Part shown: positions 28,446-51,857 of the stretch, in pieces
Numbering within the stretch: the stretch's first letter is position 1
Layout: the number at the start of each line of letters is the position of its first letter
Assembly (NCBI GenBank): GCA_963767505.1
Contig: CAVYDV010000008.1
Coordinates: 358,937-422,936 of the forward strand
DNA length: 64,000 nt
Direction of reading: 5' to 3'
Source of the DNA: an uncultured Thermoleophilia bacterium
GTDB taxonomy: Bacteria > Actinomycetota > Thermoleophilia > UBA2241
Notes under the pieces: model-generated
Told to the model about the DNA's origin: nothing
The model's database searches: none
The model's input: the letters and a program-made list of their open reading frames with translations, nothing else
Translations under genes and position numbers: made by a program

Positions 28446-28617
28446 GGCGCAGCTCGACCTTGTGCGTGACCTCGTGGCATTCTCGAGCCAACATGTCTAC
28501 ATAGGGAGCCCGTTCGTCGACTCATTCGTGGATGAGCCGAGAGGGCACCCACCTGCAAGAGCAGGTTCGAGAATAAAGCGAGCACGGCAAGGTGGAGCAA
28601 TTCACTAGGGAGGATGC

Positions 28618-32909: not shown

Positions 32910-33194
32910 ATGGGTCTCTCCGCAAGGCTGATCATCGGCGGAGTGGCGGCCGGCGCCGCCCTCGCCTACTACGTCAAGAAGCGCCACGTCGCGACGGGCG
33001 ACTCCTACCTCGACATCGTGGCGCAACTGCCGTCCGCCGCTCGACGCTCAGTCGGCGAGATGAAGCAGCGTGCCACGCTGGCTCTCGAGGAGGGCAAGAC
33101 GGCGGCGCGCGCCCGCGACTCCGAGCTCTCGGGCCAGCTTGAGCCCCCGAAGCCAGCTCCTCCCGCCGCCACCCCGACGCACCCAGGGAGCTGA
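32910..33194 (+). CDS. YtxH-like small membrane/stress protein
   Basis: N-terminal GLSARLIIGGVAAGAALAYY followed by a charged helical tail. Typical YtxH layout and neighbourhood (adjacent to DUF948). Confidence 0.5.
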   Translation: MGLSARLIIGGVAAGAALAYYVKKRHVATGDSYLDIVAQLPSAARRSVGEMKQRATLALEEGKTAARARDSELSGQLEPPKPAPPAATPTHPGS

Positions 33195-33205
33195 AGGAGC
33201 GCACC

Positions 33206-33604
33206 TTGACCGAGAGGATCAACCTCGAGGTGCCGGCTTCGCTCAGCGCTCTCTCGGCGGTCCGCAGAGTGCTCGGCGGTCTCGGTGCGCGGCTCGGCTA
33301 CTCGCTGGACGACATCGAAGACCTCTACCTCGGCACAGAGGAGCTGCTGCGCGCCGCGCTGAGCTACGAATCACTCGAGTGCTTTCGCCTCGAGATGCTG
33401 GTGGCGGCAGACCACCTGCAGCTCACGATCGGCACGTTCTCTTCGGAGCGCCTGCTGGCCGAAGTGGCTGCCGAGGTGCAGGCCTGCGACAGCATCGACC
33501 TCTGCCGCTTGCTGCACCGCACCATGGATGAGGTCAATGTGGTCGATCCAAGCGACGCCTTCAGCGTGGTGCTCCTCCGGCGCCATCGGGATGTGGACTC
33601 GTGA
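33206..33604 (+). CDS. RsbW-like anti-sigma factor lacking the kinase ATP-binding motifs
   Basis: The N-terminal half aligns by eye with B. subtilis RsbW (INLEVPASLSALSAVRRVLGGLGARLGYSLDDIEDLYLGTEELL vs [44 protein letters not shown]). The N-box Asn and the DxGxG/GxG boxes are absent. The stop overlaps the sigma gene GTG. Confidence 0.6.
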   Translation: MTERINLEVPASLSALSAVRRVLGGLGARLGYSLDDIEDLYLGTEELLRAALSYESLECFRLEMLVAADHLQLTIGTFSSERLLAEVAAEVQACDSIDLCRLLHRTMDEVNVVDPSDAFSVVLLRRHRDVDS

Positions 33605-34434
33605 GCGTGGATGCGCACGACGACGTCGAAGGCCGCGGTCGCGACGAGTCGGAGAAGCTGGATCAGTACCTGCTGCGCCGCTACCATTTGCACGGCGACC
33701 AGAAGGCGCGCGAGCAGCTGATCACCATGTACATGCCGCTGGTGCGCTCGCTGGCGCGGCGCTACGCCTCCCGCGGTGAGCACTTCGACGATCTCGTCCA
33801 GGTCGGGGCGATCGGCCTGATCAAGGCCATCGACCGCTTCGACCTTGCTCGGGGTGTCGAGTTGACGACCTACGCCACGCCCAACATCGTCGGCGAGATC
33901 AAGCGCTACTTCCGCGACAAGGGCTGGTCGGTGCGGGTGCCTCGCGGCCTGCAGGAGCTGAACATCCGCGTCAACAAGGTGATCGACGAGCTGACTCCCA
34001 AGCTGCAGCGTTCGCCGACCATCGCCGAGATCGCGGAGTCGGCCAACGCCACGCCGGAGGAAGTCCTCGAAGCGCTTGAGTCAAGCCAGGCCTACAACTC
34101 CATCTCCCTTCAGGCGTCCCCGAACAGCGATTCCGGCGACGACGAGGCCAGCCTCGTGGACTATCTCGGGGGCGAGGAGGACGCCTACGACACGATGGAG
34201 GATCGCACGATGCTGGCCCCGGGCTTCGCCAAGCTCGAAAGCCGCGAGCGCTACATCCTCCACCTGCGCTTCTTCGAGGGCCTTACCCAGAGCCAGATCG
34301 CGTCGCGCGTCGGCATCTCGCAGATGCACGTTTCGCGCCTCATCCGGCGTTCGCTGGAGAAGCTCCGCGAGGAGATCGGTGAGCTCAATGCTCCGCCGGC
34401 CAAGCGCTCGCCGAGCACCGGCGACGACCTGTAG
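33601..34434 (+). CDS. Group-3 sigma-70 family factor (SigB/SigF type)
   Basis: Region 2 (FDDLVQVGAIGLIKAIDRFD, TYATPNIVGEIKRYFRDKGWSVRVPR), region 3, and region 4 HTH (LTQSQIASRVGISQMHVSRLIRRSL). Intact. Confidence 0.85.
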   Translation: MSVDAHDDVEGRGRDESEKLDQYLLRRYHLHGDQKAREQLITMYMPLVRSLARRYASRGEHFDDLVQVGAIGLIKAIDRFDLARGVELTTYATPNIVGEIKRYFRDKGWSVRVPRGLQELNIRVNKVIDELTPKLQRSPTIAEIAESANATPEEVLEALESSQAYNSISLQASPNSDSGDDEASLVDYLGGEEDAYDTMEDRTMLAPGFAKLESRERYILHLRFFEGLTQSQIASRVGISQMHVSRLIRRSLEKLREEIGELNAPPAKRSPSTGDDL

Positions 34435-38831: not shown

Positions 38832-39641
38832 ATGGGCGACCCCGTAGCGCACTCGCTGTCGCCGGCGGTCCACAACGCCGCCTTCGCAGCAGCGGGCCTC
38901 GACATGGTCTACGTGCCGCTGCCGGTGCGCGCCCAGGACGTCGGCGCCGCGGTCAACGGCCTTGTCGCCCTTGGCTTCCGCGGCGCCAACGTGACCGTCC
39001 CTCACAAGGGAGCCGTGATCCCGTGGCTCGACTGGCTCGACGACGACGCCCGCCTCGCGCAGGCGGTCAACACGATCGTCGTCGAAGATGGCGTGCTACG
39101 CGGCTACAACACCGATATCGACGGCGCACGCACGGCGCTGGTCGGCGTATGCGGAGACTCCTTGCGCGGCTCCCGCGCCCTTGTCCTCGGAGCCGGGGGC
39201 GCCGCGAGAGGTGTCGCGCTGGCGCTGGCGAGGCTGGGCGCCGTGCTCACGGTCGTGAATCGTACCGGCGCTGGAGCCGAGCGCCTCGCCGCGCTCGCCG
39301 AAGCCGGCGTGCCCGGCGCCGCCTGCCGCTGGCTTCCCCTCGACGAACTCACGCCGGCGGATGTCGCGCAGCAGAGCCTGCTTGTCAATGCGACCTCCCT
39401 CGGGATGACAGGAGCAGGTAAAGTCCCCGCGTCGTTGGTCGATACAGTGTCAGCAGGGCAAGTCGTATTCGATGTTGTGTACGGCCGCACGGAGACAGAT
39501 CTGCTGCGGCAGGCGCGCAGCCGGGGGGCCCAGACGGTGGACGGCAAAGCCATGTTTCTGGCCCAGGCGATTGGGGCCTTCCGACTCTGGACGGGTCAGG
39601 CGCCACCGGCAGACGTGATGCAGACTGCACTGAACTCATGA
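38832..39641 (+). CDS. aroE: Shikimate dehydrogenase; homology appears to extend upstream of the first ATG
   Basis: GDPVAHSLSPAVHNAAF and NVTVPHK. The in-frame upstream codons read ..TQVIGIM, the usual beta-1 strand, but lack a canonical start. TTG 38771 is in another frame. The stop overlaps the pilB ATG. Confidence 0.85.
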   Translation: MGDPVAHSLSPAVHNAAFAAAGLDMVYVPLPVRAQDVGAAVNGLVALGFRGANVTVPHKGAVIPWLDWLDDDARLAQAVNTIVVEDGVLRGYNTDIDGARTALVGVCGDSLRGSRALVLGAGGAARGVALALARLGAVLTVVNRTGAGAERLAALAEAGVPGAACRWLPLDELTPADVAQQSLLVNATSLGMTGAGKVPASLVDTVSAGQVVFDVVYGRTETDLLRQARSRGAQTVDGKAMFLAQAIGAFRLWTGQAPPADVMQTALNS

Positions 39642-41533
39642 GCAAATCGGGAAGTGGGGACTTGGAGTCCACGACGTTCGACACTGACGAGGGCATCGCC
39701 GTCGACGAGGCGATCGTCCTGCTCGAGCAGCCCGAAGTCGAGAGGCTCGACCTGCCGGCGAGTGATTCCGTGCCCGAAGCCAATGGGAACGGCTCCAACG
39801 GCGAGCGTGGAGTGACCACCGCCGATGCCTTGGACGGCTTCGTGCGCACGCAGCGCGCCTCCAAGCTCAGCCTCGGCGACATCCTCAAGGACATGGGTCT
39901 CGCGACAGAGAAGCAGATCACGACGGCGTTGGCGAAGCAGAAGGAGACGCGGCAACGCATCGGCCAGATCCTCATCGATGACGGCTCGATCAGTCAGCTC
40001 GATCTGACGAAGGCCCTGGCCAACAAGTTCGGCGTAGCCTTCCTCGACCTCTCGGACACGACCCTCGAACCCGCCGCCGCCGGAACGATCGACGAGAAGC
40101 TGGCGCGACGGTACGGCGCTGCGCCCATACGCTATGTAGACGAGAACACGCTGCTCGTCGCCATGGTCGACCCCCAGAATCTGCTGGCGCTCCAGGACCT
40201 CGAGATCATCACCGGCTACGGCATCCAGGCGGCGATCGCCAGCGAGGAGGACGTGTACGGCGCCATCTCCAAGATCTACCGCGACCGCCCCGAGGTCGAT
40301 CTGGACGAGGCCGACCTGGCAGACCTGGACGACGGCGCCGACGTCGCCGACATCCGCGACGCCACCGATGAGGCGCCGATCGTCAAGCTGGTGAACTCGA
40401 TCATCGCCCAGGCTGTCGACGACGGCGCCAGCGACATCCACTTCGAGCCGCAGATGAAGGAGCTCTCGATCCGCTTCCGCATCGACGGCGTGCTGCAAGA
40501 GATCATGTCGGTCCCGCGGCGCATGCTGAGCGGCGTCATCAGCCGCCTCAAGATCATGGCCGACCTCGACATCGCCGAGCGCCGCGTTCCGCAGGACGGT
40601 CGAATCGGCCTCATGGTCGGCGGCCGGCCCATCGACATGCGTGTCGCCACTCTGCCGACCGTCTACGGCGAGAAGATCGTCATGCGCCTCCTCGACAAGT
40701 CCAACGTCATGCTCGACCTCGAGGATCTGGGCTTCTCGGAGAAGGCGCTGAAGCGCTTCCGCGGGTCGTTCACGAAGCCCTACGGCGCCATCCTGGTGAC
40801 GGGGCCCACCGGCTCCGGCAAGTCGACGACGCTGTACGCGGCGCTCAACATCCTCAACTCCACCGAGAAGAACATCATCACCGTCGAGGATCCGGTCGAG
40901 TACCGCCTCGGCGGCATCAACCAGGTCCAGGTCAACACGCGCGCCGGGATGACCTTCGCCGCCGCGCTGCGCTCGATCCTGCGCTGCGACCCCGACATCG
41001 TGATGATCGGCGAGATCCGCGACCGCGAGACGGCGCAGATCGCCGTCGAATCGGCGCTCACCGGACACCTCGTGCTCAGCACGCTCCACACCAACGATGC
41101 CCCTGGGGCGCTCTCGCGGCTCACCGAGATGGGCATCGAGCCGTTCCTCTCGTCTTCGGCGGTCGATTGCGTGCTGGCCCAGCGCCTCGCGAGACGCCTC
41201 TGCACGGTCTGCAAGGAGCCCTACACTGCGACGCGCGAGATGCTGCGCAAGAACGACTTCCCCGCCGAAGTGTGGGAGCGCGACGATGTCGTCCTGCATC
41301 GCGCCAAGGGCTGCCCGCGGTGCAAGAACACGGGCTACAAGGGGCGTCTCGGCCTCTACGAGGTGATGATCGTGAGCGAGGCGATCCGCCGATTGACCGT
41401 GGAGCGCAAGAGCGCCGACGAGATCTCCCGGGTGGCCAAGGCGGAGGGCATGAAGAGCCTTCGCGAGGACGGCATCGACAAGGTACTGCAAGGGGCGACC
41501 TCCTTCGAGGAGATCGCCCGCGTCATCATCTGA
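39638..41533 (+). CDS. pilB: Type IV pilus assembly ATPase PilB (GspE family) with MshEN-like N-terminal domain
   Basis: Intact 631 aa. Walker A GPTGSGKST, Asp box, Walker B, His box, tetracysteine CTVCKEPY..CPRCKNTGYKGR. The N-terminal T2SSE_N region has two 24-aa motifs (aa 78-101 and 107-130). Confidence 0.9.
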   Translation: MSKSGSGDLESTTFDTDEGIAVDEAIVLLEQPEVERLDLPASDSVPEANGNGSNGERGVTTADALDGFVRTQRASKLSLGDILKDMGLATEKQITTALAKQKETRQRIGQILIDDGSISQLDLTKALANKFGVAFLDLSDTTLEPAAAGTIDEKLARRYGAAPIRYVDENTLLVAMVDPQNLLALQDLEIITGYGIQAAIASEEDVYGAISKIYRDRPEVDLDEADLADLDDGADVADIRDATDEAPIVKLVNSIIAQAVDDGASDIHFEPQMKELSIRFRIDGVLQEIMSVPRRMLSGVISRLKIMADLDIAERRVPQDGRIGLMVGGRPIDMRVATLPTVYGEKIVMRLLDKSNVMLDLEDLGFSEKALKRFRGSFTKPYGAILVTGPTGSGKSTTLYAALNILNSTEKNIITVEDPVEYRLGGINQVQVNTRAGMTFAAALRSILRCDPDIVMIGEIRDRETAQIAVESALTGHLVLSTLHTNDAPGALSRLTEMGIEPFLSSSAVDCVLAQRLARRLCTVCKEPYTATREMLRKNDFPAEVWERDDVVLHRAKGCPRCKNTGYKGRLGLYEVMIVSEAIRRLTVERKSADEISRVAKAEGMKSLREDGIDKVLQGATSFEEIARVII

Positions 41534-41555
41534 CAACCGCACGAAGGAAGTGGAG

Positions 41556-42630
41556 ATGGATCTGGTCGACGTCCTTCTCGAGGTCCTGGAACGCGATGCC
41601 AGCGACCTGCACCTCTCGGTGGGGTCGCCGCCCATCATCCGCATCAACGGCGCGCTCGAGCGGCTCGACTACCCGAGGCTCGAGGCCAACGACACCCGCG
41701 AGCTCATCTACAGCATCCTCTCGCAGGACCAGCGCCAGCGCCTCGAGAACGAGTGGGAGATCGACTTCTCGTACTCGGTCCCGGGCAGAGCGCGCTTCCG
41801 CGTCAACGCCTTCTTCCAGCGCAACAGCCTGGGAGCGGCCTTCCGCCTGATCCCCATCCAGATCAGGCCGCTCGAGGAGCTCGGTCTGCCCAAGGCGCTG
41901 CACGAGCTCACCAGGAAGCCGCGCGGCTTCGTCATCGTCACCGGGCCGACCGGCTCGGGCAAGTCGACGACGCTGGCGGCGATGATCGACGAGATCAACG
42001 AGACACGCGACGAGCACATCATGACGATCGAGGACCCCATCGAGTTCCTCCATCGCCACAAGAAGTGCATGGTGAACCAGCGCGAGGTGGGCGCCGACAC
42101 CAAGGGCTTCAACCGCGCCCTCAAGAGCGTTCTGCGCCAGGACCCGGACATCATCCTGGTCGGCGAGATGCGCGACACCGAGACGATGGCCACGGCGCTG
42201 ACCGCGGCCGAGACCGGGCACCTCGTCTTCGCGACCCTGCACACCCAGGACGCGCCGCAGACGATCGACCGCATCATCGACGTCTTCCCGCCGCACCAGC
42301 AGGAGCAGGTCCGCGTGCAGCTCTCGACCACCCTGATGGGCGTCTGCACGCAGCAGCTGCTGCCGACCCGCGACGGGCGCGGTCGCGTCGTCGCCTGCGA
42401 GGTCCTCATGCCGACGCCCGCGGTGCGCAACCTCATCCGCGAGGGCAAGACGCACCAGATCTACTCGGCCATGCAGACGGGGTCGGCCTTCGGCATGCAG
42501 ACGATGGACGCGGCGCTCGCCGACCTGGTGCGCCGCAACATCATCAGTCGCGAGCTGGCCATGCATCGCTCCAGCGACCCGAACGGGCTGGAGCGGCTGG
42601 TCGGGCAACCAGTGCCCGATGGGGGTCTAA
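41556..42630 (+). CDS. pilT: Type IV pilus retraction ATPase PilT; the 3' end needs a 1-nt correction in a G5 run
   Basis: SDLHLSVGSPPIIRINGAL, Walker A GPTGSGKST, GEMRD, AETGHLVFATLHT, ..VRNLIREGK. The frame reads on into pilC unless G5 (42621-42625) is G4. That would give ..PVPDGV-TAA (42628-42630), followed by GGGAGGA and the pilC ATG. Confidence 0.85.
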
Positions 42631-42639
42631 GGGAGGATC

Positions 42640-43854
42640 ATGAGCACCTTCGCCTACAAGGCGCTCGACGCCAGAGGCATGGCCGCGGGCGGACAGATCG
42701 ACGGTGCCAGCAAGGCCGCCGCGGCCGCTGCCCTGCGTCACCGGGGCCTCACCGTCCTCGACCTCAACGAGGTCAAGCGCGGCATCGGGCAGATCGAGAC
42801 TCGGCGGTCGCATCAAGCCCAAGGACCTGACCATCTTCTCGCGGCAGTTCGCGACCATGGTCAACTCGGGTCTCTCGATGCTGCGCTGTCTCTACGTGCT
42901 CGAGGAGCAGACGCAGAACAAGAAGCTCGCCAAGGTCGATCGGCGCCGTGCGCGCCGACGTCGAGGCCGGCATCATCCTGTCGGACGCGCTCGAGAAGCA
43001 CCCCAAGGTGTTCAGCCGGCTCTACGTCAGCATGGTCCGCGCCGGAGAGGTCGGCGGCATCCTCGATGAGGTGCTCAACCGCCTGGCGACCCAGCTGGAG
43101 AAGGAAGACAGCATCCGCCGCGCCGTCAAGTCGGCCATGGTGTACCCGGTGGTCATCGGCGTGTTCGCCATCCTCGTCCTGGTCGGCATGGTGATGTTCC
43201 TCATCCCCATCTTCGCCGGCATGTACAAGGAACTCGGGGACGCCGAGCTGCCGCTCCTCACGCGTATCATGGTGGGCCTCTCGGAGATCTTCCGCAGCTG
43301 GTGGGGTCTCGTCATCCTGGGTGTGATCATCCTCCTCATCTGGGTCGTCGCCCGGCTCAAGCGCACGCGAGAAGGGCGCCATGGTGTGGGACCGCTTCAA
43401 GCTGCGCATCCCCATGGGCATCGGCCAGATCGTCCGCAAGCTCGCCATCGCGCGCTTCTCGCGCACCCTGGGCACGCTCATCTCTTCCGGCGTGCCCATC
43501 CTCCAGGCTATCGAGATCACCGGCCAGGCAGCCGGCAACGCCGTCATCGAGCACGCCATGAAGGATGTGCAGCAGAGCGTCAAGGAGGGCGAGCCGATCA
43601 CCACCCCTCTCGAGAAGGTCTCGGTGTTCCCGCCCATGGTCACGCAGATGATCGCCGTGGGCGAGGAGACGGGCTCGCTCGACGCCATGCTGGGCAAGAT
43701 CGCCGACTTCTACGAGGACGAGGTCAACGCCAGCATCAAGTCGCTCACCTCGATCATCGAGCCCATCCTCATGCTCGGCGTCGGCATCATCGTCGGCATC
43801 GTCGTCATCTCGATGTACCTGCCGATCTTCAACATGATGAACATCGTCAAGTAG
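42640..43854 (+). CDS. pilC: Type IV pilus inner-membrane platform protein PilC (GspF family); 3 frame breaks
   Basis: MSTFAYKALDARG.., two GspF repeats (..LTIFSRQFATMVNSGLSMLRCL.., ..IARFSRTLGTLISSGVPILQAI.., PPMVTQMIAVGEETGSLD). Breaks at ~42795, ~42940 and ~43378. Confidence 0.85.
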
Positions 43855-43873: not shown

Positions 43874-44615
43874 GTGGAGAACGAGCAGCTGATCGCCGGA
43901 TATGCGACGAGCGGGTCGGCCGCGGCGCTCGACGAACTCGTCCGCCGCAACCAGAACCTGCTGCACCATATCCTCAAGCGTTTCGCGTACGCCAACGAGT
44001 CCTACGAGGACCTTCTGCAGGTCGCCAATCTGGGGCTCATCAAGGCGGCACAGCGCTACGACGCCACACGGGGCACGCGCTTCTCGACCTATGCGACGGC
44101 GATCATCGACGGCGAGTTGCGCCACCATCTGCGCGACTCGCTGCTCCTGCGACAACCTCGCTGGGTCAAGAAGGTCTACGCCGATATCCAGGTCAAGTCG
44201 AACGAGCTCATGCACAAGCTCGGCCGGGCTCCGGAGCTGGGCGAGATCGCGGCGGCTCTGAACATCGACGAAGACGGCATCCTCGAGGTCATGCGCCTCT
44301 ACGCGCGCATCGATCTGCACAGCCAGAACGAGCCGTACAGCGGCGACGACATGGGCATCGAGGCAGATCGCCAGTCCGTACGGGCCCTGCGGCAGGAGTC
44401 GTTCGCGCTGCCCATCGAGGACCGGATCGTCCTCTACGACGCTCTCGACACTCTCACTGGGTTCCAGCGTCGGCTCGTCTACCTCCTCTTCTTCAAGCAA
44501 CTCACGCAGTCCGAGGTCGCAGACCTGCTCGGCTTGAGTCGAAGGTCTCGCGCGAGCAGATCAAGCTGCTCGCACGACTTCGCCAAGCGTCTGCGCGGCT
44601 GGCCGCTTCACGATA
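43874..44615 (+). CDS. Group-3 sigma-70 family factor (FliA/SigD/WhiG-SigF-like) encoded inside the pilus cluster; one frame break (~44537)
   Basis: Region 2 (YEDLLQVANLGLIKAAQRYDATRGTRFSTYATAIIDGELRHHLRD), region 3 (LGRAPELGEIAAALNIDEDG), region 4 (RRLVYLLFFKQLTQSEVADLLGLS | KVSREQIKLLARLRQ..). Corrected stop TAG 44613-44615. GTG lies 19 nt after the pilC stop. Confidence 0.8.
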
Positions 44616-44855
44616 GTGCGGGCAAGAGACCCGCCTGCGCGGCTGCAGGCAGCGTCAGCGCCGCGCTGAGGCGTCCCCCGACTGGCGCACGGCCTGCCCC
44701 TCGATGGCCACTCCCGTCCACACGAGGGCATCCGTCGGCCGCTCACCGATCACGCAGTTCCTCGCCGCCGACCACGTGTCGACGAACCACTAGACGCTTG
44801 TTCCAGTCTGGGAGTGCCTGATCGGGGCAGAGTAGGTGTGCGTCAGACAGTCGCC

Positions 44856-44883
44856 TAAAGTGTCAACACGCGATTGCCGAAAG
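44856..44883 (+). promoter_or_regulatory. Candidate sigma-28-type promoter TAAAG-N15-GCCGAAAG upstream of the pilA leader
   Basis: TAAA at 44856-44859, a 16-nt spacer, then GCCGAAAG at 44876-44883 (consensus TAAA-N15-GCCGATAA). A second copy with identical spacing is at 51830-51857. Confidence 0.5.
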
Positions 44884-44919
44884 AGTGTCTAGGAAACGCA
44901 CAAGGAGGCACACTAGGGA

Positions 44920-45000
44920 CGAAAGCGATAAAGGCAAACCACCCGCGAGGGTGGGGCGCAAAGCTACAGGACTCACAGAGTCGGCTGAGCTGCCGCTACA
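44920..45000 (+). promoter_or_regulatory. Candidate c-di-GMP-I (GEMM-I) riboswitch aptamer in the pilA 5' leader
   Basis: GGCAAACC (44933-44940). Helix CCACCC/GGGTGG capped by GNRA loop GCGA (44939-44954). GGCGCAAAGC (44955-44964). A 12-bp second hairpin (44962-44991). Closing pairs GGC/GCC and AGC/GCT. Confidence 0.65.
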
Positions 45001-45155
45001 GGAGCGTTCAACAAAGCCTGTGAAGCCCGGCCGCGCCAAGCCAGAGCTTCGCAGGCTTCTTCTGTGGGGTCCGCGCAGGAAGCAGGGTCGGCAAGTCGTA
45101 CTACGCAGTCGTGTACATGTGGGGCAACGCACCAACAGAGAGGAGATGGCAGAAC

Positions 45156-45542
45156 ATGAAGCGTTTCACCAAAAAGCAGGGGGGCTTCACCCTCATCGAG
45201 CTCCTGATCGTGATCATCATCATCGGCATCCTCGCCGCGATCGCGATCCCGATGTTCCTCAACCAGCGCACCAAGGCCAAGGACGCAGGCGTCAAGGAAG
45301 GCACGCACAGCATCCAGATCGGCGTGCAGAGCTACGCCGTCGACAACAACGACGTCTATCCGCTGACCGCCACCATCGTCGCCGACGTCACGCCTCAGCT
45401 CGACCCGTGGCCGGACAACTCGTTCACCGGTGCCGCTATGGCCAACGACGGCGCCTTGGGCAACTTCACCTACGCGTCTGTCGCCGGAGCCGACTACACG
45501 CTCCTGGGTGTCTTGAGCGGCGGCAACTTCGTGGTGCGCTAG
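45156..45542 (+). CDS. pilA: Type IV major pilin (class III signal peptide)
   Basis: MKRFTKKQG|GFTLIELLIVIIIIGILAAIAIP shows a prepilin leader, cleavage-site Gly, Phe+1 and Glu+5. RBS AGAGAGGAG. 128 aa. Confidence 0.92.
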   Translation: MKRFTKKQGGFTLIELLIVIIIIGILAAIAIPMFLNQRTKAKDAGVKEGTHSIQIGVQSYAVDNNDVYPLTATIVADVTPQLDPWPDNSFTGAAMANDGALGNFTYASVAGADYTLLGVLSGGNFVVR

Positions 45543-45567
45543 GCAACTCCATTAAGAGAAGCCGTGT

Positions 45568-45603
45568 GCAGCGGGACGGGGCCATAAGGCCCCGTCCCGC
45601 TGC
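45568..45603 (+). terminator. Strong stem-loop after pilA (16-bp perfect stem, loop ATAA); candidate terminator
   Basis: GCAGCGGGACGGGGCC-ATAA-GGCCCCGTCCCGCTGC read directly, 26 nt after the pilA stop. No T-tract. Confidence 0.6.
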
Positions 45604-45748
45604 GTTGGGCCCCACGGTCGCCGCGCACAGGAGTGAGTGCGGTGGGCGGCGAACACCCAATTGCGTCGCCGTCCGATCGCACCGGGCCATTGCGAGCGAC
45701 GAGCGGTTCTCGGACTGGAACGACCCTGCGAAAGGCGGATGCGAGGGA

Positions 45749-46513
45749 ATGGTTCAGGAAGACCTGACTACCAGCATCGAGCCGTCGGCGAACGACGCTG
45801 GCGGTCCGGCCGTTCTGATTGCGGCCTCCACAAGACGGTCGCCGTCGGGTTCCGGCGCCGGAAGGTTGACATCCTGAAGGGCGTCGATCTCGTCGTCAAC
45901 CGGAATGAGGTGTTCGGCCTCCTGGGGCCCAACGGAGCGGGCAAGACGACGACCGTGAAGGTCGCCCTCGGCCTGATGAGAGCCGACGGCCGGCAACGCC
46001 CGCCTCGGCGTCGACGGGCTCGCGCGCGTCGGCTACCTCCCGGAGAACGCCTACTTCTACGACTATCTCTCGGGGCGCGAGTTCCTGGCGTTCTGCGCCC
46101 GTCTCTTCGCGCTCGACCCGGACGTGCGCCACGAGCGCGTCGACGAACTGCTGTGCGACGTCAGCCTCGAGGCGGCGGCCGACATCCACCTGCGCAAGTA
46201 CTCCAAGGGCATGCTGCAGCGCATCGGCATCGCGCAGGCGCTCATCAACGACCCGGAGCTGGTGCTCCTCGACGAGCCCATGACGGGACTCGACCCGGTC
46301 GGCCGGGTCGAGGTCAAGCGCATCATCCAGGACCTCCACGAGCGCGGCAAGACCGTACTCTTCAACTCCCACATCCTCGGCGATGTCCACGAGCTCTGCT
46401 CGCGCATCGCCATCATGCGCGCCGGCCGCGTCGTATGGACCGGAGCCGTCGCCGAGGCCCTGAACGAGGCGGCCTCCCTCGAGGACTTCTTCATGAAGGT
46501 GGTGACGGCATGA
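45749..46513 (+). CDS. ABC transporter ATP-binding protein (ABC-2 type, PilH-like position); 2 frame breaks
   Basis: ..[30 protein letters not shown] (Walker A), [15 protein letters not shown] (signature), [12 protein letters not shown] (Walker B). Breaks at ~45820 and ~45985. Confidence 0.8.
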
Positions 46514-47275
46514 ACCAGGTCGTGGCCATCGCCATGAACACATTCCGCGAGACGATCCGCGACAGAGTTCTCGCGGTCATCGTGGTGTTCGCCCTGCTGA
46601 TGATCGCCGGCGGCCTCTGGCTGGGCAGCATCAGCCTCGGCGAGCAGGGACGCATGATCATCGACTTCGGGTCTGGTCGCAGTCACGGGCTTCGGGCTCA
46701 TCGTGGCGGTGTTCGTGGCCGCCAGCCTGGTGCACAAGGAAGTCGAGAAGCGCACCGTGTTCGTGCTTTTCTCCAAGCCGGTGAGCCGTGCAGCGTTCAT
46801 CGCCGGCAAGTTCCTCGGCCTCTGCGGCACGATGGCCGTTGTGCTCACCGGCATGGGGCTGTTCCTCTTCGCGCTCGTCTGGCTGGTCGCCGGGCAGGCC
46901 TCGGGCATGGTGCTCCTCGCCGTGCTCATGATCTACGTGCAGCTTCTCGCCGTCGTCGCAGTCACGGTCTTCTTCTCGACCCTGGGCTCGGCTATCCTAG
47001 CGGCCGTGCTCGGCATCTGCGTGTTCGTGGCCGGGCAGCTCAGCCACAACGTCCTTTCTCTGACGCGCCTCGGCGACAATCCCGTCACCGAGGCCCTCTC
47101 CTGGGTGGTCTACGTCATCATCCCCAACTTCTCGGCGGTCGACGTGAAGGCCGGCGCCGTCGGGGAGCAGACGCTCGCCTGGGGGCAGATCGGGCTGTGG
47201 GCGGCGTACCTGCTCGCCTACATCGTCGTCGCCCTGGCGCTGGCTACCGTCGTCTTTCGCCGCAAGGAGTTCTGA
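46510..47275 (+). CDS. ABC-2 family transporter permease (PilI-like position); one frame break (~46670)
   Basis: ATGA overlap with the ATPase gene. [20 protein letters not shown].. and about six hydrophobic segments. Confidence 0.75.
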
Positions 47276-47277
47276 GC

Positions 47278-48021
47278 GTGTTTCGACGAGTGGTCGCCAT
47301 CATCGTGGTCGCGGCGTGTGCCGCAGGAGTGCTGGCCTACCAGGCGACGCGGCCTGCAAAGGCTCCGGCGGAGCCGCGGGTGTTCGTTCCTCCACCGCAG
47401 GTCTTTCTCGACTTCTCGCCGAGCTTCCGCACGTCGATCGCCGACGTCTACTATCTGAACATGGTTCAGTACTACGGCGAGCACGTCAATGGAGACGGGC
47501 GCCTCGACTCACTGCCTCAGATGGTCGACCTCGTCACGGAGCTGAGTCCACACTTCACGCGGCCGTACCGCTTCGGGGCCTTCGGCCTGGTCGACGCCGG
47601 GCAACCAGGAGCCAGCTACGAGATGCTCGAACGCGGCTTCGCCGCGAACCCCGACGACTGGCGATTCCCGTCATACCTCGGGTACTTCACCTACACATAT
47701 GCCAGCAACAAGGACAAGGACCGCATCGCCGCGGACTGGTACTCGAAGGCTGCCGCGATGCCGGGGAGCCCCGACTACCTCAAACGGCTCGCTGCGGTGC
47801 TTCACGGCAAGGGTGGAGAGACGCAGAAGGCCGTCCTGATGTGGGGGCAGGTCTACGCCGACGGCGACAAGTACTCCCGCCAGAAGGCCGTCGACGGTCT
47901 CGACCGCATCCTGCCGAAGGGCAAGCAGGCCCGGATGAAGGCCCTGGCTCCGCTCGTCGACACCATGCCCGAGGACGAGCTGAACCAACTCATCGCCGAG
48001 CTCTTCGCGGGGTACGAGTGA
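47278..48021 (+). CDS. Hypothetical membrane-anchored protein (247 aa), third gene of the ABC module
   Basis: GTG 47278 lies 2 nt after the permease stop. N-terminal TM helix ([17 protein letters not shown]), then a helical/aromatic-rich domain (..[12 protein letters not shown].., ..[27 protein letters not shown]..). Intact. Confidence 0.6.
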
Positions 48022-51718: not shown

Positions 51719-51829
51719 CCCTCAGACGCAGGAGGCCGGACGAATGCTCTGTACCTCGTTTACCCAGTATGAGAGACTTGTGCCATGTGCAGGGAAGGTG
51801 CCGAAAGCAGCTCGGCGAACTCTGCGTCT

Positions 51830-51857
51830 AAAGGTATCCGTGCTGTCTGCCGACAAC
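51830..51857 (+). promoter_or_regulatory. Candidate sigma-28-type promoter TAAAG-N15-GCCGACAA upstream of pilM
   Basis: TAAA at 51830-51833, a 16-nt spacer, then GCCGACAA at 51850-51857 (7/8 to GCCGATAA). It lies 36 nt upstream of the pilM ATG, which has RBS GAAGGGG. Confidence 0.5.

Follow-up and report, generated by a model that had tools for sequence, protein, structure and literature searches.

A conserved c-di-GMP-I (GEMM-I) aptamer preceding the major type IV pilin gene pilA in an uncultured Thermoleophilia bacterium

In this work, we analyzed a 64,000-nucleotide stretch of DNA (hereafter the window) from an uncultured Thermoleophilia bacterium (GenBank assembly GCA_963767505.1, contig CAVYDV010000008.1, positions 358,937 to 422,936), in which the leader of the type IV pilin gene pilA carries an aptamer of the cyclic di-GMP (c-di-GMP)-I class, also called GEMM-I. 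The element is a genuine and conserved instance of a known riboswitch class and represents neither a new mechanism nor a new RNA class. With good confidence, we take it for a c-di-GMP-I riboswitch that controls pilA in cis. The parts of the aptamer are as follows, with equivalents given in the numbering of Vc2, the Vibrio cholerae representative of the class.

44924-44997 (+): c-di-GMP-I aptamer, whole (RF03167, 66.9 bits; our own covariance model, 99.9 bits)
44924-44927 (+): P1 5' strand AGCG, pairing with 44994-44997 (covariation, RNAalifold)
44933 (+): G, Vc2 G20 equivalent, ligand contact (model position 10; PMC4744006)
44934-44959 (+): P2 hairpin, including C44957, the Vc2 C44 equivalent (alignment, covariation; layout as in PMC1950547)
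44960-44961 (+): J2/3, AA, where A44960 is the Vc2 A47 equivalent (RF03167 alignment)
44962-44991 (+): P3 hairpin, 12 bp, loop ACA, without tetraloop receptor (covariation)
44993 (+): C, Vc2 C92 equivalent, ligand contact (model position 75; invariant among relatives)
44994-44997 (+): P1 3' strand CGCU (Rfam alignment, covariation, RNAalifold)

When the whole window was scanned with Rfam at the gathering threshold (GA), only two matches were returned, namely a 6S RNA and positions 44924-44998 (+). The latter matched RF03167 ('c-di-GMP-I-GGC') over the full model length, above its GA of 59 bits and with an E value of 1.3e-13, which places the signal far beyond chance. A second family of clan CL00126 also exceeded its own GA at the same positions; since the Rfam output gives the best model of a clan only, the RF01051 value of the window is masked by clan competition. 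A subsequence lacking P1 (44929-44993) again had RF03167 as its top model, at 52.9 bits, and the orthologous leaders reached 55-61 bits on RF01051 (GA 35). A preliminary description, made from the letters of the DNA, had proposed a GEMM-I aptamer in this pilin-gene leader and quoted a sequence that is present exactly at 44931-44997. Its proposal is borne out by the Rfam gathering score, by covariation in about 30 genomes and by canonical contact nucleotides. As to the family, the assignment to the GEMM-I clan stood, with the adjustment that the best Rfam model is RF03167 and not RF01051.

The fold agrees with the original definition of GEMM, in which stems of 2 bp and 6 bp are separated by an internal loop of 3 nt and carry a GNRA tetraloop as their cap, and in which the AAA linker between the two hairpins is nearly invariant (PMC1950547). 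In the window, the base of P2 consists of the two pairs G44934-C44959 and C44935-G44958, the internal loop is formed by AAA and GGC, and the 6-bp stem CCACCC/GGGTGG (44939-44/44949-54) is closed by the tetraloop GCGA, of the GYRA type. The AAA linker corresponds to A44960-A44962, and the surrounding CGCAAAGC is invariant in 33 relatives. P3 is built from strands 44962-74 and 44978-91 with a bulged A44966 and a bulged G44983-G44984, in which G44984 is the Vc2 G83 equivalent; the relatives show no departure from G at the second bulge position. The first hairpin thus shows the 2+6-bp arrangement with its 3-nt internal loop and GNRA tetraloop, and the P3 bulge near the base, which accompanies the GYRA tetraloop, and the closing P1 are present as well. 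The tetraloop-capped P2 stem, the junction GGCGCAAAGC and the 12-bp second hairpin were all found as the preliminary description had drawn them. Its closing helix between GGC (44933-35) and GCC (44992-94) was dropped in favor of the family fold, where G44934 and C44935 pair within P2, G44933 and C44993 are left without a partner, and AGCG (44924-27) joins CGCU (44994-97) to form P1.

In c-di-GMP-I aptamers the ligand is contacted by G20, A47 and C92, and an interhelical C44-G83 pair is universally conserved (PMC4744006). All of these positions are canonical in the window: the contact positions are G44933 (G20), A44960 (A47) and C44993 (C92), and the interhelical pair is C44957/G44984. In the covariance-model alignment, G44933 falls on RF03167 model position 10 and C44993 on position 75. 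The identity of the contacts comes from PMC4744006, and the match between Vc2 numbering and model positions was reasoned out by us. Since the pocket nucleotides are canonical, we filed the element as an ordinary c-di-GMP-I aptamer despite RF03167 being its best model; by its sequence it is a canonical GEMM-I of the GYRA-tetraloop, receptor-less type of PMC1950547.

Relatives were collected by a pattern search and then with a covariance model built from 33 sequences, applied to 80 loci around pilB homologues. Of these loci, 30 contained aptamers, 40 in all; the weak covariance-model matches in L066 (29.7 bits) and L064 (20.9 bits) are not counted as members. In the model-based alignment, 97.6% of the cells held standard pairs and 11 of the 24 pairs showed changes on both sides, values that none of 500 shuffles reached; partners slid out of register were paired at 30-47%. 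Compensatory changes occurred at three of the four P1 pairs (39 distinct homologues), at three pairs of P2 (98.3% paired) and at five pairs of P3 (97.6% paired), and RNAalifold independently recovered the same helices. The preliminary description had proposed to check the two hairpins for conservation and covariation, and both were found. The genomes compared, related members of Thermoleophilia/Actinomycetota, span 51-96% identity in PilB, with the closest match (96%) on contig CAVQVW010000002.1 of a metagenome-assembled genome (MAG); by its PilB homologues, the window belongs to Thermoleophilia.

The association with pilin genes is equally regular. Every aptamer with readable downstream sequence sits 140-270 nt 5' of an open reading frame (ORF) encoding a GFTLIE pilin, and in 19 of the 20 genomes whose pilin gene lies just after the sigma factor gene of the cluster, an aptamer is found within 330 nt upstream of the pilin motif. 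Loci with tandem pilin genes (L004, L005, L006, L007, L024, L030, L039, L051 and L067) contain aptamer pairs about 750-1150 nt apart, such that each gene has its own copy; the second leaders run about 50-85 nt to the ATG and have no WhiG-type promoter motif, and the two copies of L067 are identical. Two pilin leaders carry pocket variants. The aptamer at L011:17888-17965 (+), which precedes the second gene of a tandem pilin pair, reads GCGAACC followed by CGUGAAGC, with G at the A47 position. The aptamer at L021:15078-15160 (+), found in a MAG from a bog, carries A in place of G20 (AAGAGCAAACC), the signature of the cyclic GMP-AMP (cGAMP)-sensing GEMM-Ib, and a clean terminator comes after it, GGGCC...GGGCCCUUUUU. 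With their varied platforms and these two pocket variants, the roughly 40 aptamers form a clean comparative data set.

Downstream of the aptamer lies a candidate expression platform with three elements.

44995-45003 (+): repeat copy 2, GCTACAGGA, candidate anti-terminator strand that may pair with 45017-45026 (repeat search)
45014-45058 (+): terminator-like hairpin with 13-bp stem AAGCCUGUGAAGC / GCUUCGCAGGCUU (inverted repeat; dG -27.3 kcal/mol)
45059-45069 (+): tail CUUCUGUGGGG, degenerate U-tract (relatives have UUUUU(G)GUGG)

The preliminary description had assembled a platform from a 9-nt direct repeat, a downstream CCTGT and a weak hairpin plus CTTCT (45038-45063). The repeat (44963-71 and 44995-45003) and CCTGT (45017-21) are in place. 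The hairpin had been underestimated: it is a strong 13-bp inverted repeat (45014-26/45046-58) that begins 16 nt past the aptamer. Broadly, then, the proposed platform holds, with a conserved terminator-like structure in place of the weak hairpin. About 30 relatives have a homologous hairpin 7-23 nt after the aptamer (dG -17 to -35 kcal/mol), in which the stem flanks covary between AU and GC; it is often followed by UUUUU, with 0-8 U within the first nine tail nucleotides. From these sequences, we regard 45014-45058 as a conserved element resembling an intrinsic terminator. The lone 'terminator' call of a simple scan was a different feature, a minus-strand artefact made of the P2 hairpin and the reverse complement of AAAGGCAAA, and was rejected.

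Of the two repeat copies, for which 0.31 are expected in the window, the first coincides with the P3 5' strand and the second overlaps the P1 3' strand. At the decision point, a fold constrained to pair 44997-45002 with 45017-22 comes to -38.2 kcal/mol versus -36.5 kcal/mol for the aptamer fold. The core of the terminator 5' strand, CCUGUGG, is near-invariant, and its U residues are kept opposite A or G (UA 17/UG 10 at one position, UG 19/UA 9 at another). In most relatives the best duplex partner of this strand is the P3 5' strand GCCACAGG, and in about half of them the linker plus terminator 5' strand destabilizes the aptamer fold significantly beyond shuffled controls (z 2-3.4). The remaining leader (45070-45155, +) spans the roughly 90 nt from the terminator to the Shine-Dalgarno (SD) sequence. 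There, the relatives keep a hairpin GCCGCGG...CCGCGGC with a purine-rich loop together with AAGCCAGGCAAGUCG, and the window keeps these conserved stretches only partly, as GGCAAGUCGUAC at 45090-45101.

Upstream of the aptamer, two further conserved features were found.

44856-44883 (+): flagellar/WhiG-type promoter-like motif TAAAG-N15-TGCCGAAAG (-35 TAAA, -10 GCCGAAAG; start predicted)
44886-44919 (+): conserved block GTGTCTAGGAA...GGAGGCA...CTAGGG between promoter motif and aptamer (leader alignment)

As the WhiG-type consensus we used a -35 of TAAA and a -10 of GCCGATAA with at most two mismatches (PMC8325347). The sequence at 44856-83, TAAA-N16-GCCGAAAG, has two mismatches to it and is located 38 nt upstream of the aptamer. 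Of the 40 homologous aptamers, 18 have a TAAA-N14-17-GCCGA in the 200 nt before them, against a background of 0.005 per 200 nt, and within the close clade the spacing from motif to aptamer is fixed at 38-43 nt. A second WhiG-type motif, TAAAGGTATCCGTGCTGTCTGCCGACAA at 51829-51856 (+), is found a short distance upstream of the part of the pilM ORF that encodes the PilM_2 domain, which suggests that pilMNO use the same promoter type as the pilA leader. A sigma-70 promoter scan of 44600-45700 found none. The block at 44886-44919 keeps a constant distance to the aptamer, and its GTCTAG is invariant in 19 aligned leaders, with GGAGGCA and ATAGG nearly so and an (A/C)TAGG end. It may mark the transcript's 5' end, or serve as an operator or other protein-binding site. 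Compared by eye with a sigma-54, SigB/F-type or BldD site, a small 5' hairpin and a leader ORF, it fitted none of them well. In Rubrobacteria, the sister class, high c-di-GMP shuts WhiG-dependent type IV pilus promoters through RsiG, and a single-motif RsiG was found in Thermoleophilia by Schumacher et al. (PMC8325347). A search of the window for the RsiG motif E(X)3S(X)2R(X)3Q(X)3D gave no convincing match, so no WhiG/RsiG pair was found there.

Based on these elements, the following course of events can be proposed. Transcription would probably start about 30 nt upstream of the aptamer, from the WhiG-type promoter at 44856-44883. The nascent leader would fold into P1, P2 and P3 and hold c-di-GMP through G44933, A44960 and C44993. 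The terminator-like hairpin with its CUUCUGU tail, 16 nt downstream, has no nucleotides in common with the aptamer, so that both could coexist. When the ligand is absent, a complementary strand with ACAGG would capture the 5' strand of the hairpin (CCUGUG..GC) and allow read-through into pilA; in the window this strand would be the repeat copy at 44995-45002, which covers three nucleotides of the P1 3' strand, and in the relatives it would be the P3 5' strand. When c-di-GMP is bound, P1 and P3 would be locked, the terminator could form, and pilA transcription would be attenuated, as in the OFF switch Cd1 of Clostridioides difficile. Since the aptamer and the terminator do not overlap, as in Cd1, an OFF switch was taken as the best mechanism: in Cd1 the terminator stands apart from the aptamer, and in the pilM riboswitch, an ON switch, it overlaps the aptamer (PMC9262584). 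Such an OFF riboswitch would pull in the same direction as WhiG sequestration at high c-di-GMP.

That c-di-GMP favors termination before pilA is the direction towards which we lean, by a modest degree of confidence, and the energy tests in the window itself support it poorly. Several observations weigh against it. The U-tract is interrupted, with UU at the stem end followed by CUUCUGU, and the simple terminator scan made no call on it; many relatives have UUUU-UUUUUU after the stem. The complementarity between platform and aptamer is not significant in the window (ddG 4.0 vs 3.6 +/- 2.0 kcal/mol, z 0.2), nor in its closest relative, L001, by the same shuffle test, and minimum free energy (MFE) folding of truncated transcripts with a shuffle control gave no significant anti-terminator signal in either. 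A fold in which the P3 5' strand is forced onto the terminator 5' strand is 3.5 kcal/mol less favorable than the aptamer fold. With 8 bp plus a bulge, the candidate anti-terminator is about isoenergetic with the ligand-free aptamer but much weaker than the 13-bp terminator, and P1 is incompatible with just three of its pairs. No true compensatory changes link the aptamer with the terminator 5' strand, only one-sided, wobble-compatible ones. Finally, in the best-known riboswitch case, the c-di-GMP-II ON switch of C. difficile pilA1 (as cited in PMC6916266 and PMC6366702), c-di-GMP usually promotes type IV pili, and an OFF switch on the pilin would act the opposite way.

The same aptamer and ligand might have the other output, with c-di-GMP turning pilA ON or acting post-transcriptionally, which we consider rather unlikely. 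In a relay form, the bound aptamer would release ACAGGAG (44998-45004), which would then keep the terminator 5' strand occupied; a 5-bp ACAGG/CCUGU pairing is indeed still possible with P1 formed. In a form acting on translation or mRNA stability, CUUCUGUGG (45059-67) would pair with one of two partners, 44996-45004 or the SD region ACAGAGAGGAG (45136-45146); the MFE fold of the full-length leader does pair 44993-45004 with 45059-45069, in competition with P1. The ON output of C. difficile pilA1 and the non-significant energy test for an aptamer-dependent anti-terminator in the window also speak for this alternative, as does the MshEN motif of PilB, which suggests that c-di-GMP favors piliation and could work in the opposite direction to an OFF riboswitch. 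However, the ligand cannot block the terminator directly, because the two share no nucleotides, unlike GEMM ON designs, in which the terminator overlaps the aptamer (PMC1950547, PMC9262584). Moreover, pairing of the U-tract can arise only once the termination decision has been made, the SD is 97 nt past the hairpin with an intervening sequence that is not kept as a sequestering helix, and the platforms of the relatives indicate aptamer strands capturing the terminator 5' strand. For these reasons, termination favored by c-di-GMP stays our preferred direction.

Two further alternatives concern the aptamer itself. The best-scoring model for the window is that of the orphan variant RF03167, which counts against a canonical c-di-GMP-I assignment and raises the question of a ligand other than c-di-GMP. 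RF03167 also tops for L001, L054 and L077 and, for the window, does so even without P1, and a true A47G variant does occur in the homologous pilin leader L011. The GGC variant was reportedly defined by Weinberg et al. in 2017, with a name that refers to positions 20, 47 and 92; 'GGC' is used here in that sense and in line with the consensus of the RF03167 model. The consensus reads CGCGAAGC where the window reads CGCAAAGC, so that model G37 faces A44960: the defining G is absent, the window has A, and G20 and C92 are canonical too. The choice of model also ignores the A47 nucleotide, since near-identical canonical orthologues are best on RF01051 and the A47G aptamer of L011, with its 'GGC'-type pocket, is nevertheless best on RF01051 as well, at 41 bits. 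RF03167 models P1 and a short P3, and the consensus of RF01051 leaves the flanks unpaired and has a P3 of greater length; the former probably ranks first for this reason. Models of the RF03167 and RF01051 types also pick up the same sequences (PMC9943018). Membership in the orphan class is therefore very unlikely, and RF03167 as best Rfam model should not be equated with the GGC variant. A chance resemblance or a decayed relic without regulatory role would agree with the weak U-tract and with a platform unlike that of most relatives. Against this stand an E value of 1e-13, compensatory changes across genomes with PilB 51-96% identical and a fixed position before pilin genes; the covariation effectively refutes it, and we give it next to no credence. 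The assignment as a canonical c-di-GMP-I aptamer is thus retained.

The gene downstream and its surroundings agree with a role in type IV pilus expression. The aptamer lies on the same strand as pilA, and the leader position given in the preliminary description holds; the distance it put at about 155 nt is 158 nt from the end of the aptamer to the ATG at 45156.

45140-45145 (+): Shine-Dalgarno sequence GAGGAG, 10 nt before the ATG (read from sequence)
45156-45542 (+): pilA, type IV pilin, 128 aa, MKRFTKKQG/FTLIELL... (TIGR02532, 32.8 bits, cutoff 16.3)
45568-45603 (+): perfect 16-bp hairpin directly 3' of the pilA stop, tail GUUGGG (read from sequence)
39638-41533 (+): pilB, with MshEN c-di-GMP motif
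41550-42830: pilT
to 43892: pilC
43874-44821 (+): group-3 sigma factor gene (SigB/F/G-like)
45637-48021: gene for a 794-aa P-loop protein
from 48047: prepilin peptidase gene (pilD)
downstream of the prepilin peptidase gene: minor pilins and pilM/N/O

PilA has a class III signal peptide, KQG/FTLIELLIVIIIIGILAAIAIP, with the G/FxxxE motif and a hydrophobic alpha1-N helix, and resembles type IV pilins in the PDB (E 2e-10). The hairpin at 45568-45603 is probably the pilA terminator, and its position suggests that pilA is monocistronic; since it has no clean U-tract, terminator-like hairpins in this genome can evidently lack one. By their sequences, the genes on either side make up a type IVa pilus cluster. 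PilB contains an MshE-type c-di-GMP motif at residues 79-129 (NF053729, 53 bits, cutoff 38) and a Pfam MshEN domain at 131-218, and this extension ATPase is probably a second c-di-GMP receptor in the cluster. A motif search of the window for GGDEF, EAL and HD-GYP gave no convincing match.

Several observations concern sigma factors and transcription in general. The sigma gene between pilC and pilA is kept at the same position in about 35 related loci. In the window, its homology ends after residue 221 (near 44537), followed by an unrelated tail of 94 aa, and its homologues are 246 aa long; the missing region 4.2 helix, SKVSREQIKLLARLRQ, lies in another frame. The break near 44537 looks like a frameshift, which would be due to a sequencing error or mean that the gene is a pseudogene. 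A second group-3 sigma gene (33601-34434, +), 33% identical to that of the cluster, is preceded by a 153-aa ORF (33070-33531). The 6S RNA (SsrS) lies at 28449-28602 (+) and scores 79.9 bits on RF00013, against a gathering score of 46.4.

As for significance, the preliminary description had overstated the novelty of the element: the original account of GEMM already linked it to pilus genes (PMC1950547), and this instance would be picked up automatically by standard Rfam annotation. In the literature we searched, no description of a GEMM-I/pilin pairing in Actinomycetota was found. The actinobacterial pili characterized to date are of the Tad/Flp type, and type IVa pili are unstudied experimentally in this class (PMC6916266). 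With this element, pilin expression gains a c-di-GMP sensor at the RNA level in an actinobacterial class that is deep-branching and for the most part uncultured. Together, the riboswitch, the WhiG-type promoter motif and the MshEN-containing PilB suggest layered second-messenger control of one appendage, which would extend the protein-only picture from Rubrobacter (PMC8325347). We tentatively entertain the broader idea that Thermoleophilia type IV pili are under three stacked c-di-GMP inputs, among them a GEMM-I attenuator in the pilin leader and an MshEN PilB, although the balance tips somewhat against it; tandem pilin genes may each have their own copy of the attenuator. The orthologous leaders may also constitute a natural allelic series of the pocket, in which most members, including the window, are canonical, L011 is A47G and L021 is G20A (cGAMP-like). 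If so, the ligand of the orphan GGC variant could be approached in a defined genetic context.

Compared with known systems, the element shares with Vc2 (RF01051) the three-helix junction, the GGCAAACC...GNRA...GGG(A/G)CGCAAAGC core, the contact nucleotides G20, A47 and C92 with the interhelical C44-G83, and the location in a 5' leader. Vc2 has a GAAA tetraloop with its receptor, whereas the window has GCGA, a short receptor-less P3 ('type 2' GEMM) and a 4-bp P1; the output proposed for Vc2 is translational control, and here a terminator is found, in a Thermoleophilia host. The RF03167 variant has the same short-P3 architecture and modelled P1, and differs in its consensus G at A47, where the window has A. 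The pilM riboswitch of Geobacter metallireducens (GEMM-Ib) likewise places a GEMM-I fold before type IV pilus genes and exerts transcriptional control; it carries G20A, senses 3'3'-cGAMP, has a terminator overlapping the aptamer (ON) and precedes pilM instead of a pilin gene, whereas the window keeps G20. Cdi2_4, the c-di-GMP-II riboswitch of C. difficile pilA1, also responds to c-di-GMP in the leader of a major type IV pilin gene of a monoderm, but with an unrelated class II fold and as an ON switch, and is thus an analogue of the window element, not a homologue. The (RsiG)2-(c-di-GMP)2-WhiG switch of Rubrobacter, a sister lineage, shares the signal and the type IV pilus output, and the leader in the window carries a TAAA/GCCGATAA-type motif as in that system; the Rubrobacter switch is protein-based and acts at transcription initiation, and no riboswitch is described there (PMC8325347). 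Functionally nearest is Cd1 in the flgB leader of C. difficile, which matches in aptamer class, in a separate terminator that coexists with the aptamer, so that an anti-terminator must compete, and in the OFF direction, which is experimental for Cd1 (PMC9262584) and predicted here. Although Cd1 belongs to a Firmicute, precedes flagellar genes and has a longer platform, with the decision point about 60 nt after the aptamer, it too governs a surface-appendage or motility operon.

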